From positions 1-38,961 of the forward strand of contig CAZHAL010000001.1 of assembly GCA_964530355.1 (NCBI GenBank): DNA of 38,961 nucleotides. The letters are read 5' to 3'. This document shows, piece by piece, positions 20,826 through 38,808 of this stretch. The notes beneath the pieces were generated by a model. It did no database searches. It worked only from the letters and a program-made list of their open reading frames with translations, and was not told where the DNA came from. A program made the translations under genes and the position numbers. Origin of the DNA: an uncultured Bacteroidales bacterium (GTDB lineage: Bacteria > Pseudomonadota > Alphaproteobacteria > Rs-D84 > CACZYB01). The first letter of the stretch is position 1. Every line of letters starts with the position of its first letter.

Positions 20826-21785
20826 ATGCTTTCAAAATTCTTAAAAACTACTACTCCAAAGGAAACATACAAACTTCCCGTTGTAACAAAGGAACTTGCC
20901 TCTTTTGCCACAACAATATTTGAATTTTCAACCGACGCAATGTTAATACTTGATTCGGTCGGCAAAATAGCCTCTGTCAACACCGCACTTTGCAACCTTA
21001 TTTCTGATGAAAAGGAAAACATAGTCGGACAAATTCCGGAATTCCTTTTCGGCGGACAAAGTGACATTTTATCATTCAAAAATTTCATCCGGGATTTAGT
21101 TTTAAACGGCTATTGGAACGGTCAGGTTTTAGCAAGGAGCAAATCCGGAGCCGTAGTCCCGATGGAAATCCGCTTTTCCGCAATCTATAATGATATAGGT
21201 GAGGCAAACCACTTTATCGGTATCTGCTCTTCCATCTATTCTTATATATCAAAGATGAACGAGCTTCCATTCGACCCTAACCTTGACCCGCTTACAAAAA
21301 CATATAACTACAATTCGTTCTTGCACCGCCTTGAACATAATATACATAAGATTGAAAAGGATATGTCAGTCCTTTCCGTATTGTATATTGATATTGACGG
21401 TTTTAAAAACCTTGATAACACACATAATTATTTAACCGGAGACACTGTCCTTAAAAACCTGGGCGCCCTTCTTACCGAAACACTTGAAAAAAGTGATACC
21501 GTAGCAAGATTAAAGGCGGACATTTTCTGCATAATACTTCTTGATATTTATACCCAGGAAAGCATTCAAAAAATGGCGGAAAACATTTTCAAAAAGATTA
21601 CCGCACCTTATGCGCTGCACCCTGATATAGAACATATATCTATCAGTATGGGTGTTGCGACTTATCCTATAAGCGGGGAAAATCCGCAAAGCTTAATCGC
21701 CTCCGCCGCAGAAGCAACCAAGAATGCAAAAAATGCAGGTGGTAATCAAATCAAATATCATAAAAGTTTAAATGAGATAGATTAG
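20826..21785 (+). CDS. PAS-GGDEF protein with a degenerate active site (KADIF instead of GGDEF)
   Basis: PAS-like N-half (FEFSTDAMLILDSVGKIASVN...GYWNGQVLARSKSGAVVPMEIRF). GGDEF fold: DPLTKTYNYNSF...VLYIDIDGFKNLDNTHNYLTGDTVLK...ARLKADIFCIILL...SISMGVATYP...AKNAGGNQ. Confidence 0.75.
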   Translation: MLSKFLKTTTPKETYKLPVVTKELASFATTIFEFSTDAMLILDSVGKIASVNTALCNLISDEKENIVGQIPEFLFGGQSDILSFKNFIRDLVLNGYWNGQVLARSKSGAVVPMEIRFSAIYNDIGEANHFIGICSSIYSYISKMNELPFDPNLDPLTKTYNYNSFLHRLEHNIHKIEKDMSVLSVLYIDIDGFKNLDNTHNYLTGDTVLKNLGALLTETLEKSDTVARLKADIFCIILLDIYTQESIQKMAENIFKKITAPYALHPDIEHISISMGVATYPISGENPQSLIASAAEATKNAKNAGGNQIKYHKSLNEID

Positions 21786-21805
21786 CTAAGAGCTGTTCAA
21801 ACCCA

Positions 21806-21831
21806 AACTCCCTGTTAAGGGAGTTTTTTTT
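21806..21831 (+). terminator. Rho-independent terminator of the GGDEF gene
   Basis: Stem AACTCCC / GGGAGTT with loop TGTTAA, followed by T8. Confidence 0.7.
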
Positions 21832-21937
21832 AGTCGCAATTTTTCAAGACCGATAGGCTCTCTGGAAAAATTTTTATGAAGGGAAATTTATATAAAGTAA
21901 ATACATCCACCAGAAAGGTTATTACGAAGTAATGACC

Positions 21938-21967
21938 GGCAACCCCCAGGGGGGCTCGGGGGTCGCC
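21938..21967 (-). repeat. GC hairpin with C-rich loop (minus-strand reading GGCGACCCCC-GAGCCCCCCU-GGGGGUUGCC)
   Basis: 10-bp stem. It is perfect (with one G.U) on the minus strand and has an A.C mismatch on the plus strand. Confidence 0.6.
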
Positions 21968-22073
21968 TTATAACAAGGAGGAGAGTATAAGGAATTTGAA
22001 GAGGAGGAAAAACATAAATGAAAACAATCAAACGCAATACATCTTCCAGTAGTAAGTTTTTTATAAAACTTAC

Positions 22074-22111
22074 GTCGCCCTCCCTTACCCCCCCCCTTGC
22101 GGGAGGGCGAC
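22074..22111 (+). repeat. GC hairpin with C-rich loop (GUCGCCCUCCC-UUACCCCCCCCCUUGC-GGGAGGGCGAC)
   Basis: Perfect 11-bp stem and a 16-nt loop containing C9, read directly. Confidence 0.6.
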
Positions 22112-22195
22112 ATTGACGAGGATAAAGATAAACAGATTGTTGAAGTTGTTTTTCATAAGTTTCCATATCCCTCAACCATATCCGGGTTGATAGCC

Positions 22196-22266
22196 CCAGT
22201 CTGCTCGGCACCCCCTCCGCCCCCTTTAGGGGGTGCCGGAAAACCACTTCGTGATTTTCGGACTGG
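22196..22266 (+). repeat. Nested hairpin element CCAGUC...CGGCACCCCC-UCCGCCCCCUUUA-GGGGGUGCCG...GACUGG
   Basis: A 6-bp outer helix encloses a perfect 10-bp GC stem with a C-rich 13-nt loop, plus a second small hairpin. It is collinear with the element at 37790-37845 on the opposite strand. Confidence 0.6.
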
Positions 22267-22354
22267 CAGATATGGTTAAGTAATTTTCTCCCAGAAAACC
22301 GAGCGAATGTCCGCACCCGCGGGCGGGCACAAAATAAAATAATTCATTATAAAA

Positions 22355-22388
22355 AACTCCCCAACAAAAAGGGGAGTTTACGCATCGA
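22355..22388 (-). terminator. Rho-independent terminator of glycine-rich protein gene 1
   Basis: Minus strand reads AACUCCCC-UUUUUGUU-GGGGAGUU followed by U6. The design is nearly identical to the terminator at 37935-37964. Confidence 0.7.
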
Positions 22389-22401
22389 TTCGGATTTATA
22401 A

Positions 22402-23151
22402 TCAGTTACAATCATAAAACTTATATATTTTAATCCAACCATCACCACCGGCACTTCTCGCAGAATTAGAATCACAGTCGGACCTTTTACCTCCTATACC
22501 TTTTGAACCACCTAAACCATTTCCCGCAGGAGCTTTATTTGCCGGATAATAGGAACAACCTCCCTTTTCTCCTCCGTCACCACCTGCAACATAAAGGTTA
22601 TAAGAACCTACCGTAATTTCTGAATGACCACCATTGCCACCATTTTCTCTTGCTCCTCCTCTAGAACCTCCCTTTCCTATTTTATAAGTAAGCTGTATGG
22701 CATCCGCAAAATGTAATATCTTTGAATATTGCAAATCACCTGCACCGCCATCTCCGCCGGGACCGGAACAACATCCTTTCAATCCGCGACCTTCTCCATG
22801 AGAACCGGCGCCACCACCTCCTGCACTGGCAACTTCAAATTGATAAATACCGGGATCTAAATTCCTAAAGCTAGTACTCTTAGCCCCCCAATCCCAAACA
22901 GGAACATTTGAATTGTAACTGTCATTCATTTCTGCAACAACCATTTTTCTACACCTTGACGGATCAAAAGGAGTCCCTGTATTCGCCGGACATACCTTCC
23001 CCTCCGGACATGTCGCACAAGACGTCAACGTCCCGTCACTATACGTTCCTAATCTACACGATAAACATTGATAAACCGCACTTCTGCCTACCAATGCCCC
23101 GGCAACTGACATCACCATCGCCCCTATTACTAACTTTTTCTTTTTTCCCAT
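22402..23151 (-). CDS. Secreted Cys-rich / glycine-rich domain protein (paralog 1)
   Basis: I prefer the start at the second ATG (23151), preceded by GGAGGA. Signal or anchor segment KKKKLVIGAMVMSVAGALVG. Cys module YQCLSCRLGTYSDGTLTSCATCPEGKVCP. Then PGIYQFEVASAGGGGAG and repeated GGxGG tracts (GPGGDGGAG, GGNGG, AGGDGGEKGG). Confidence 0.7.
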   Translation of the reverse strand: MGKKKKLVIGAMVMSVAGALVGRSAVYQCLSCRLGTYSDGTLTSCATCPEGKVCPANTGTPFDPSRCRKMVVAEMNDSYNSNVPVWDWGAKSTSFRNLDPGIYQFEVASAGGGGAGSHGEGRGLKGCCSGPGGDGGAGDLQYSKILHFADAIQLTYKIGKGGSRGGARENGGNGGHSEITVGSYNLYVAGGDGGEKGGCSYYPANKAPAGNGLGGSKGIGGKRSDCDSNSARSAGGDGWIKIYKFYDCN

Positions 23152-23251
23152 TTTTTCCTCCATTTCTTTTCTTGGGTTAATTATTTTTAATTTCGGGAGG
23201 GAGGAAGCAGAAGACTATGAACCAAAAAAACAACTTCCTCCCGCAAATTAA

Positions 23252-23545
23252 CTAATTTCTATACAGCCCCCTATACATACCGGGACTGCAATTATTAGTA
23301 TTATTGTTTAAACTTATATAAGTCCCTGCCGGACACTTTAATGCTAAACACTCACGGTCTACATACATTTTACCTGACGGACAACTACACGAAGCCCCAT
23401 CCCTATAAGTAGCCTTAGTATCGCACCTGCCGTTCTTCGGCACACAATACTTTATAAGCATTTTATCATACGCGCTTACCCCCGCCTTTGCAGACAGACT
23501 TAACCCTCCGACAAATATGCCAAAGATTATATATTTCTTTTTCAT
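23252..23545 (-). CDS. Small secreted Cys-rich protein (97 aa), upstream of glycine-rich paralog 1
   Basis: Start placed at ATG 23545 (RBS AAGAGGGAG), giving signal peptide MKKKYIIFGIFVGGLSLSAKA. The mature part is CVPKNGRCDTKATYRDGASCSCPSGKMYVDRECLALKCPAGTYISLNNNTNNCSPGMY, with 8 Cys. The longer track ORF start (23635) lies in the structured leader. Confidence 0.6.
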   Translation of the reverse strand: MKKKYIIFGIFVGGLSLSAKAGVSAYDKMLIKYCVPKNGRCDTKATYRDGASCSCPSGKMYVDRECLALKCPAGTYISLNNNTNNCSPGMYRGLYRN

Positions 23546-23611
23546 ATCATACTCCCTCTTTTTACCAGTTGATAAAATCAAATGGTGTGTTACAATAAAT
23601 CCTCTGCACAC

Positions 23612-23792
23612 GCGGGGAGTTGACAAATCACACATTATAAGATGACTCTACATAACCTTTAAGAACCGTCTGTTCTCTGAACATACGTTATGAGCTCCCC
23701 ACATACACAAAGATGTGGAGCACATAAAGTTCTTAAAGTATGCCTTTTTTAAAACAAACTTTATAATGTGTTAGGACTTGTCACAGTCCCGC
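23612..23792. ncRNA. 180-nt rod-like inverted-repeat element: candidate ncRNA (6S-like shape), structured 5' leader, or MITE-like element
   Basis: ~30-nt arms pair (23612-23640 with 23761-23792). A 10/18-nt internal bubble follows, then a 14-bp inner stem (23651-23666 with 23729-23742) and two apical hairpins. Promoter-like hexamers exist on both strands, so the transcribed strand is unresolved. Confidence 0.35.
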
Positions 23793-37743: not shown

Positions 37744-37789
37744 GGAAAAAGTAGGTATCTCTATAAAATAACCAGCTTTTCAAAGCCGA

Positions 37790-37845
37790 CAGTCTTTATG
37801 GCACACCCGCGGGGGCGGGGATCCGGGTGTGCCATGCTCTGACTG
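37790..37845 (-). repeat. Second copy of the nested GC hairpin element (minus strand CAGUC...AUGGCACACCCG-GAUCCCCGCCCCCG-CGGGUGUGCCAU...GACUG)
   Basis: A 12-bp stem with a C-rich 14-nt loop lies inside a 5-bp outer helix. It shares CAGUC / GGCAC / CCGCCCCC / GUGCC / GACUG in collinear order with 22196-22266. Confidence 0.6.
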
Positions 37846-37934
37846 CACCACCTCCCGAGATATTGTTGAAGTTAAATGTTGTAATTTTGTTTTCTCTTTT
37901 TTTACAAATATTTTTTTATAGGTCTGATTCTCCC

Positions 37935-37977: not shown

Positions 37978-38808
37978 CTAGTATTTAAATTTATAAAGCA
38001 CCGCACAACCGGTACTTGAACTAGTACATGCAAATTTCAATGATGTATTAGTCATATGAGTTGCTTTTCCGTCAGAACACGGATAACCTCCTACCAAAGT
38101 TCTAACAGATCCGGGATAAAGCTCCACACCGATAGCGTTACCGGCACAATTACCATTATGACCTCCGCAACCTCTATTATCACTATTGAAAGCCTGTCCC
38201 GCACAACCTACTCTATCACCGCAATTACCGGAAATTCCACCTTTATAACCTCCGACACTTCCACCATCTCCTCCTTTATCAGAAGATCCGGCATCACCAC
38301 CGCCTCCAGCACCTATTGCACCACCAAGACCTCCTTGACCAGATGTATTTTCGACTTTTCCACCGCCTCCGCCACCACCTACAACTAAATACATACTTCC
38401 AATGCTTAACCAAGATCCGGCACCACCTCCACCTTCTTTTTTTTCAGAGGATCCTCCATTACCTCCGGCACAAAGCATATAGCTAGTATCATTATATACA
38501 GTAAAAGAATAGGCCAAAAATCCGCCGACACCTCCTCCATAATCTTTACCGCTACCACCTTTGCCTCCGCGTAAGAATACAACATATTCTCCCGAAGGAA
38601 GGGCAGCCGCCTTACATTTTGAAGCCGAAGGGTTTGCTATAATATCATAATTACTTGATGATTCATAGCTATAGCACTGTCCGTTCAACCCCTTTGAATT
38701 TCTAGGACAAGCAACACATTGATAAAATGTTTCCGCCTTGGCCTCGGTTGTGGAAATGCCGGTAAGCAATCCCAATGCCGAGATAGAAAATAAAAATTTG
38801 TGGTTCAT
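37978..38808 (-). CDS. Secreted Cys-rich / glycine-rich domain protein (paralog 2)
   Basis: Signal peptide MNHKFLFSISALGLLTGISTTEAKA, an N-terminal Cys module FYQCVACPRNSKGLNGQC, then SGEYVVFLRGGKGGSG and many GGxGG tracts (VVGGGGGGGK, GGLGGAIGAGGGGDAG, GGDGGSVGG). RBS AAGGAGAAAAAA. Confidence 0.7.
   Translation of the reverse strand: MNHKFLFSISALGLLTGISTTEAKAETFYQCVACPRNSKGLNGQCYSYESSSNYDIIANPSASKCKAAALPSGEYVVFLRGGKGGSGKDYGGGVGGFLAYSFTVYNDTSYMLCAGGNGGSSEKKEGGGGAGSWLSIGSMYLVVGGGGGGGKVENTSGQGGLGGAIGAGGGGDAGSSDKGGDGGSVGGYKGGISGNCGDRVGCAGQAFNSDNRGCGGHNGNCAGNAIGVELYPGSVRTLVGGYPCSDGKATHMTNTSLKFACTSSSTGCAVLYKFKY

Follow-up and report, generated by a model that had tools for sequence, protein, structure and literature searches.

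We analysed a 38,961-nucleotide (nt) stretch of DNA, referred to here as the window (contig CAZHAL010000001.1 of assembly GCA_964530355.1), in which two GC-rich hairpin elements lie in the 3′ flanks of two paralogous glycine-rich genes: element c on the plus strand (22196-22266) and element d on the minus strand (37845-37790). Our results indicate that c and d are probably two modules of one lineage-specific repeat family, whose members are small GC-rich palindromes that lie between genes and are both non-coding and non-autonomous. Such a family would be ordinary selfish or semi-domesticated repeat DNA, arranged in mosaics like those of the REP/BIME, NIME and BOX repeats. Its hosts are a few species of one genus of uncultured gut Alphaproteobacteria, with genomes of about 1 Mb and 35% GC.

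The window is the largest contig of its genome (G000, with contigs labelled by C and a number), an 860-kb draft in 101 contigs with 35% GC and 74% completeness. The comparison set comprised 41 genomes, including 13 other members of the window's genus and 27 genomes of other genera. Three of the same-genus sister genomes are called G002, G008 and G013 below, and the sizes of the sister genomes were all about 0.5-1.1 Mb.

A conspicuously GC-rich spacer of 616 nt separates a PAS-GGDEF gene from the first of the two glycine-rich genes, and within it four kinds of repeat module, A, B, C and D, make up a mosaic of about 480 nt (21905-22385). According to BLAST, essentially all of this stretch recurs, in pieces, on about 20 other G000 contigs, in varied combinations and orientations. 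Module A (21905-22021) consists of a GC hairpin (21938-21967), whose C-rich loop is on the minus strand, with ..ACAAGGAGG.. after it, and has BLAST copies on C15, C20, C34, C44, C45, C53 and C5 as well as in G002 and G013. Module B (22022-22130) is a variant of module E, described below, and contains CCAGTAGTAAG, an AT hairpin, a GC hairpin with a poly-C loop (22074-22111) and ..GAC..; copies are present on C17, C8, C20 and C34 and in G002, G008 and G013, and 12 copies were aligned. Element c is the core of module C (22136-22290), which comprises a small stem CAACC..GGTTG, a GC hairpin (22206-22238), a small hairpin (22239-22259) and CAGATATGGTTA. This module had nine BLAST matches in G000 (C1, C53, C93, C47, C15, C30, C42, C45 and C17) and one in G013, located between a peroxiredoxin-like gene and an unrelated gene, and seven copies were used for an alignment and consensus fold. 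Module D (22300-22385, minus strand) holds a terminator (22379-22354), an AT spacer and a truncated GC hairpin (22308-22330), while full D-type hairpins occur on C34, C47 and C48.

Element d lies within a fifth module, E, whose d type (37777-37905) has a small hairpin at 37782-37797, a GC hairpin at 37798-37835 with its C-rich loop on the minus strand, CTGACTG and then ATTGTTGAAGTT. The d-type unit has one copy in G000, and the 69-nt d unit gave 19 matches in G008, mostly 79-90% identical, and 16 of them are in the G008 loci that were sampled. Other hairpins occur in the E units found on C14, C42, C47, C48, C8, C34 and C93.

An earlier sequence-only reading had described c and d as one duplicated element with a truncated third copy at 22308-22330. 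The sequences of c and d read as it gave them. Both hairpins do stand beyond the terminators of the two glycine-rich genes, which are near-identical, at a distance of about 100-160 nt and in opposite orientations relative to their own gene. Element c forms a perfect 11-bp GC stem (22206-22238) with the loop CCGCCCCCTTT and the small hairpin next to it, and d forms a perfect 12-bp GC stem (37798-37835) with the loop GATCCCCGCCCCCG. The loops are alike as had been noted, both being C-rich and both containing CCGCCCCC. Both fold far better than dinucleotide shuffles, with energies of -35.9 kcal/mol (z -4.9) for the plus strand of c and -39.6 (z -4.9) for its minus strand, and -27.4 kcal/mol (z -5.2) for the minus strand of d and -29.6 (z -3.3) for its plus strand. 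The word duplicated is misleading, since c and d belong to two different repeat modules. The supposed third copy is not a c or d copy either; it consists of the 5′ arm of a D-type hairpin with a portion of its loop (GTGCCCGCCCG...), and the same truncated form recurs at C8:6340-6382 and C45:1643-1694. The outer stem CCAGUC/GACUGG proposed for c is disrupted in 5 of the 7 module-C copies that were aligned (alignment read by eye), and the CAGUC/GACUG outer stem of d overlaps the conserved small hairpin.

Taken alone, the likeness of c and d is borderline and depends on the statistic. A chain of exact blocks of at least 5 nt, a statistic picked after the fact, reaches 28 nt between them, a value attained by none of 2000 plain shuffles and by 6 of 2000 palindrome-preserving shuffles of d, whereas the gapped local alignment score was reached by 258 of 2000 dinucleotide shuffles. 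Since CAGTC/GACTG and GGCAC/GTGCC mirror each other inside each hairpin, only three matches between c and d are independent. That the resemblance is real is seen from the wider family and not from the c-d pair alone.

A common plan runs through the modules: a GC stem of 10-12 bp ending in a run of C, a C-rich loop of 9-17 nt whose C run is often a homopolymer of variable length, often with T's at its end, and, adjoining the GC hairpin, a small AT-rich hairpin and a CAGTC/CTGAC-like motif. In the sampled loci 57 hairpins carried 21 different 5′ arms, and in G000 we counted 26 GC hairpins with C- or G-rich loops, both being counts that select for pairing by construction. Free of this bias are the E units found by their flanks alone, 24 of which were aligned. 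Of these, 19 had at least 10 pairs and at most 2 mismatches, 15 had an uninterrupted stem of at least 10 bp, and the same E slot was filled by at least five quite different, fully complementary stems (our own count from the listing). Thus the earlier observation that the stem interior changes in a pair-preserving manner while the loops stay alike is borne out well beyond c and d. One pair of the small flanking hairpin covaries as well (C-G in 14 units, A-U in 7, other or unpaired in 3), with a covariation score that none of 500 shuffles reached. MAFFT put the big stems of the E subfamilies out of register, and the formal pair counts come from the small hairpin and from our own scripts. The stems themselves are real; they do not alone show RNA function, because arm-to-arm correction in a DNA palindrome also yields compensated stems. 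Perfect stems would be kept by such correction, through template switching in the palindrome, by selection for a stable hairpin, or by both.

Strong matches to the repeats are limited to a narrow group of the genomes searched. A covariance model (R1) built from the seven module-C copies and scanned over the 41 genomes found 14 places in G000, 8 in G002, 8 in G013 and 4 in G008, while the remaining 37 genomes gave no match; several of these places belong to module A or E and not to C. The positive genomes are thus G000 and three of the 13 other members of its genus, and all 27 genomes from other genera were negative. The model matched module A in opposite orientation (for example at G000:C1:21886-22011, plus strand, E 1.2e-4) and one E unit weakly (C42, E 0.009), and it gave no match to element d at E <= 0.01. 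When the whole spacer was used for BLAST, 11 of the 41 genomes had matches at E <= 0.01, and multiple strong matches were seen only in G002, G008 and G013. Exact-pattern scans for module C and the d unit gave no matches in the metagenome and viral contig collections.

Several copies carry signs of repeat-DNA dynamics. In the C45 copy the module-A hairpin is joined directly to the right half of module C, consistent with the loss of DNA between the two hairpins at a GGGGGT(C)GCCGG that both contain. One arm has decayed in C47, C42b and units j-l of G008, and the loop orientation is flipped next to the same left flank in C8b and C34 relative to the E units of C14, C42, C47 and C48. On C53 a D-type hairpin (G000:C53:6241-6400) is split by an insert of about 110 nt with CCC on both sides. 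At two orthologous positions of G000 and G008, behind a helix-turn-helix gene and behind a 365-aa gene, the hairpins are of different types. Modules of this kind would spread and reshuffle along with the flanks of the neighbouring gene families, chiefly through recombination and duplication, and a trans-acting enzyme may have added to their spread. They would also supply homology for rearrangement among surface-protein loci.

Copies of the C53 insert were also noticed at C7:12626-12716 and C13:14756-14849, next to genes of phage-like character; a direct repeat of 30 nt encloses the copy on C7.

No credible gene of G000 contains any of the 26 GC hairpins, which are placed mostly downstream of genes. 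The 16 internal spacers that bear them are tandem in 10 cases, convergent in 5 and divergent in 1, compared with 222 tandem, 71 convergent and 100 divergent among all 393 spacers. Hairpins occur in 12 of 39 spacers adjacent to the glycine/cysteine-rich secreted protein families described below, versus 4 of the 354 remaining spacers (an odds ratio of 39, with Fisher p 2e-10), and under a looser definition that adds another conserved hairpin the counts are 18 of 45 versus 10 of 506. Because paralogues share flanks and family-adjacent spacers are longer, about twofold, this enrichment figure overstates independence. The sequence-only reading had proposed that the element travels with, or targets, the glycine-rich family, and this holds as an enrichment but not as a rule, since copies of module C or E also lie at unrelated G000 loci (C14, C15, C17, C30, C53 and C57). 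The check that it had proposed, whether hits always neighbour glycine-rich genes, came out negative: among the best 7 model R1 loci in relatives, a family gene was found within about 1.5 kb of 3 and near none of the other 4, and of the 16 d units in G008, 9 lie within 600 nt of a family gene detected by tblastn and 7 do not. A tenth d unit of G008 (L049) adjoins a Cys-rich open reading frame (ORF) that tblastn missed. The distribution of the motif is thus not random, but it does not follow the glycine-rich genes faithfully either. The module D 3′ flank is also found behind family genes on C8, C45, C67, C42, C5 and C20, and the near-identity of the terminators is explained by module D, terminator included, being a 3′ flank that six or seven family genes have in common. 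The strong enrichment beside the glycine-rich family probably came about through shared duplicated flanks and recombination.

The two window genes that flank c and d encode glycine/cysteine-rich secreted proteins of a family that we call F1. The first (22402-23163, minus strand, 253 aa) matches Pfam Gly_rich_2 at 6.5e-7, and a terminator scan placed its intrinsic terminator at 22379-22354 on the minus strand; the second (37978-38808, minus strand, 276 aa) has its terminator at 37964-37943. F1 has 17 paralogues in G000, with Gly_rich_2 and ephrin-receptor/TNFR-like Cys repeats, and a second family, F2, consists of 14 small secreted 'LQKYCVP' proteins in this genome. Family genes in the window are located at 22402-23163, 23252-23635 and 37978-38808, with 28 more on other G000 contigs, and pairs of F2 then F1 recur as two-gene units. 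Relatives of the glycine-rich proteins were sought in a genome-contig collection, and none was confirmed. A perfect 44-nt hairpin at 23199-23242 (GGGAGGAAG ... CTTCCTCCC) has six identical copies in G000 (C1, C11, C42, C47, C67 and C93), which always adjoin F1 or F2 genes, and related forms occur in G008 and G013 loci. It is covered by contigs of one RNA library and could be a leader or a structure that sequesters the ribosome-binding site of the family.

Several observations weigh against ordinary repeat DNA as the explanation, and some of them concern partner enzymes and traces of movement. No RAYT (Y1 transposase, PF01797) was matched in G000, which is 74% complete, or in G008, G013 and G002, by a search whose control was positive in 6 of 14 known genomes. 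The same four genomes gave no match to an IS110 transposase, and RVT_1 was absent from G000, G008 and G013, with one match in G002. Since no transposase or other partner was found, mobility is only inferred. Furthermore, we found no 'empty' E or C slots, that is, flanks without a hairpin, and no target duplication of a whole module. The SRM pattern had 0 matches in G000, versus 0-2 in 10 shuffles, and GIY-YIG (PF01541) matched, apart from frames of UvrC size, a 415-aa ORF of G000 and one frame of 286 aa in G002.

The remaining observations of this kind concern polarity and RNA. In the tandem spacers of G000 the C-rich loop is on the antisense strand in 13 of 14 hairpins, and in the family-adjacent d units of G008 it is on the gene's sense strand in 8 of 9. 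Element d of the window agrees with these G008 units, its C-rich loop being on the sense strand of both adjoining genes. In 7 of 7 copies of module C, the minus strand of the small hairpin forms a G-U pair, where the plus strand would have an A-C mismatch. In addition, contigs of one RNA library hold parts of modules A and C; these contigs come from relatives and from other copies, DNA carry-over is possible, and strand, ends and transcription are not readable from them. Plain junk DNA predicts neither such non-random polarity nor the G-U pair; both fit modules inherited alongside gene flanks, strand-specific insertion or an RNA-level constraint. Polarity, the strand-specific G-U pair and the RNA-library contigs thus leave room for an RNA-level or strand-specific role.

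These same three features, along with the enrichment of hairpins beside the family and the compensated stems, would suit a structured cis-RNA or small RNA (sRNA) serving the glycine-rich genes, in which a transcribed unit controls, terminates or stabilises mRNAs via the conserved loop. We consider this unlikely. Searching the whole window with Rfam 15 gave no matches at the gathering threshold; below it, weak true-terminator look-alikes and a 15.7-bit fragment of transfer-messenger RNA (tmRNA) were seen near c and d. No sigma-70-like site was found on either strand of 21700-22500, where 1.7 were expected, and no promoter-like site lies upstream of d. The strong sigma-70-like promoter of rpmJ, encoding L36 (37715-37743, minus strand; TTGACA-17-TATGAT, 11/12 matches; L36 Pfam hit), is downstream of d, which therefore sits between the F1 terminator and the rpmJ promoter. 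As for termination, none of the 26 hairpins has at least 4 T in the 6 nt after the script-delimited stem, and c and d were not called by the terminator scan, a negative that is less clear for module A, copies of which by eye read ..GTCGCCTTTT / ..GGGGGTCGCCTTTT. The flipped loop orientation among E units, the opposite facing of c and d relative to their genes, the copies at unrelated loci, the frequency of truncated and decayed copies and the unconserved outer stem all argue in the same direction. The sequence-only reading had suggested that d could be an sRNA of about 100 nt; besides lacking both an upstream promoter-like site and an Rfam match, d has only a weak small terminator (37790-37771) that is peculiar to the window copy, the G008 copies being different there. 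Public sequencing runs covered small shares of the region (0.05-0.09), and parts of the stretch are uncovered by contigs. A dedicated sRNA or riboswitch of the glycine-rich genes is not supported. If the repeats are non-coding DNA of the kind proposed here, they would, where transcribed, behave like REP elements, as hairpins that are stable but passive and stand at the 3′ ends of mRNAs or in between cistrons.

Two kinds of spurious gene call were also examined in the mosaic. A divergent tmRNA at 21956-22144 (the RF00023 fragment of 15.7 bits) was rejected, as the best E value between the mosaic and the alpha_tmRNA of the genus was 0.24, and ARAGORN reported no tRNA and no tmRNA in the window. 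A two-piece alpha_tmRNA, unrelated to the mosaic, is clear in G002, G008 and G013; it was not found in the G000 contigs and presumably falls within the unassembled 26%. A 142-aa ORF on the minus strand (21888-22316) covers the whole mosaic, has no Pfam hit and exists because GC-rich repeats are short of stop codons, which makes it an annotation trap. Small ORFs over the modules (MKTIKRN.., MKNNFNN.. and MQQLAIT..) were rejected as well, because they are unconserved and their frame shifts with loop length.

Polarity could also be understood if the hairpins were cassette recombination signals, that is, single-strand-folded attC-like or NTS/SRM-like sites at which a recombinase or a single-stranded DNA nuclease moves, inverts or restricts the exchange of F1/F2 surface-protein cassettes. 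Several features are in keeping with such sites, such as a structure that is conserved while the sequence varies and the fixed polarity with which F1/F2 genes are flanked (8 of 9 in G008). One F1 gene of G008 is bracketed by inverted d units, and the cassettes occupy different chromosomal places in G000 and G008. Tyrosine recombinases number 3-5 per genome, and G000, G008 and G013 share a conserved third one (C10:13096-13578 in G000), whose open frames are 389-398 aa long. In the available part of the source, published NTS/dRS3 hairpins also cluster at surface-protein genes (PMC11893778). We nevertheless regard this explanation as quite unlikely. No attC-like core pair (RYYYAAC ... GTTRRRY) was found around c or d on either strand, with no IntI-specific domain search made, and none of the tyrosine recombinases is on the repeat-bearing contigs examined, so that as far as the contigs show they are not beside the arrays. 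The absence of SRM-pattern matches in G000 and of RAYT speaks against it too, and the dRS3 consensus likewise had no matches. UvrC is the sole GIY-YIG protein of G008, the most copy-rich genome, and elsewhere, the G002 frame given above aside, the GIY-YIG matches are UvrC-size frames and the 415-aa protein of a phage-like contig.

This 415-aa protein (G000:C83:1199-2446, minus strand) has an N-terminal GIY-YIG motif, and the short contig that encodes it carries phage-like genes. The protein is probably an endonuclease of the homing type that has, as far as seen, no relation to the repeats.

The loops themselves could also act as phase-variation switches, with G/C homopolymers that slip in length and tune the adjacent secreted-protein genes. 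Loop runs do vary among copies, roughly from G4 to G12 and from C6 to C11 by our own count; homopolymer runs in the window lie at 21945-21955 and 22088-22097, and metagenome contigs of relatives have indels at 21948, 22083-22097 and 22220. In G008, 6 of the 9 d units that adjoin family genes stand upstream of their gene. Such switching appears very improbable, since the length differences are between copies or strains and not within one locus, the d loop has no long homopolymer, many copies are downstream of genes or at unrelated loci, and no promoter elements overlap the runs. A G-quadruplex on the G-rich strand was considered and dropped, with only three G runs of at least 3 seen by eye.

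A broader proposal joins the two preceding ones, with the modules as cis sites of an undescribed system that diversifies a repertoire of eukaryote-like surface proteins (ephrin-receptor/TNFR-type Cys repeats plus glycine-rich domains). Strand-polar hairpins would bracket F1/F2 cassettes, and a recombinase, a nuclease or loop slippage would move, exchange or switch the genes. We judge this proposal, in its two parts jointly, to be improbable.

A family of intergenic repeats, the explanation that we prefer, accounts for the long GC-rich spacers, for the 142-aa ORF, which is spurious, and for many of the places where contigs of these metagenome-assembled genomes break off. It also carries a warning for annotation, namely that each such hairpin should not be called an RNA gene. 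An analogy in base composition comes from AT-rich mitochondrial genomes, whose GC clusters and hairpin elements are, like the repeats described here, GC-rich palindromic islands in AT-rich spacers. Unlike our repeats, they are organellar and have other sequences and sizes.

Among bacterial repeats, we compared the modules with several described families. In working terms they are like the REP/BIME, NIME/dRS3 and BOX families, but they show none of the sequence or enzyme hallmarks of those families. Palindromic repeat families are also described for the reduced alphaproteobacterial genomes of Rickettsia in the available text of PMC10969869, where the elements are about 150 bp long, often lie in frame inside protein genes and encode a peptide; here, by contrast, none of the 26 hairpins is in a credible gene, and loop-length changes break any frame. 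Pneumococcal BOX, RUP and SPRITE repeats and other prokaryotic MITEs (transposable elements of the miniature inverted-repeat type) are, like our modules, modular, bunched, mutually inserted and non-coding, with stable structures, as far as the same source describes them (PMC10969869). They differ in sequence, and in our case no whole-module terminal inverted repeats or target-site duplications were definable and no related insertion sequence was found. With respect to MITEs, we have one nested insertion bounded by CCC, and module ends are not definable within the mosaics.

The REP/BIME repeats of E. coli and the GTAG and CGTC superfamilies resemble the modules as small palindromic intergenic repeats that form mosaics, with several families per genome (PMC3733652, in its available part). 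Our repeats are likewise intergenic, multi-copy, mosaic and seldom in divergent spacers (1 of 16, versus 100 of 393 among all spacers). REPs are reported mainly between unidirectional or convergent genes, downstream of coding regions (Di Nocera et al. 2013, PMC3733652, available part), and the spacer-orientation pattern found here matches that report. CGTC REPs, as the same part of that paper describes them, are typical of Alphaproteobacteria, have no known transposase and possess stems of 8-9 bp with A-T at the first two positions and loops of 4-5 nt, whereas the stems found here are 10-12 bp and GC-rich throughout, and the loops are C-rich and 9-17 nt long. A further difference from REPs is that a GTAG or CGTC tag was found at or near the stem foot of only 1 of 26 hairpins, and the four genomes have no RAYT.

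The Neisseria NIME, dRS3/NTS and Ssn systems differ from ours in that no dRS3 motif, SRM pattern or single-domain GIY-YIG (SsnA) gene was found here, and that our loops are much longer. They are similar as mosaic hairpin arrays near variable surface-protein genes of a host-associated bacterium, and in having an orientation set by non-palindromic flanks, according to the available part of PMC11893778. In the present case, the repeats mark loci of a large, fast-changing secreted Cys/Gly-rich family in host-associated bacteria of about 1 Mb, much as NIME/dRS3 arrays surround the surface genes of Neisseria. If it is true that the hairpins serve recombination or switching, they would provide a handle on surface variation in reduced genomes.

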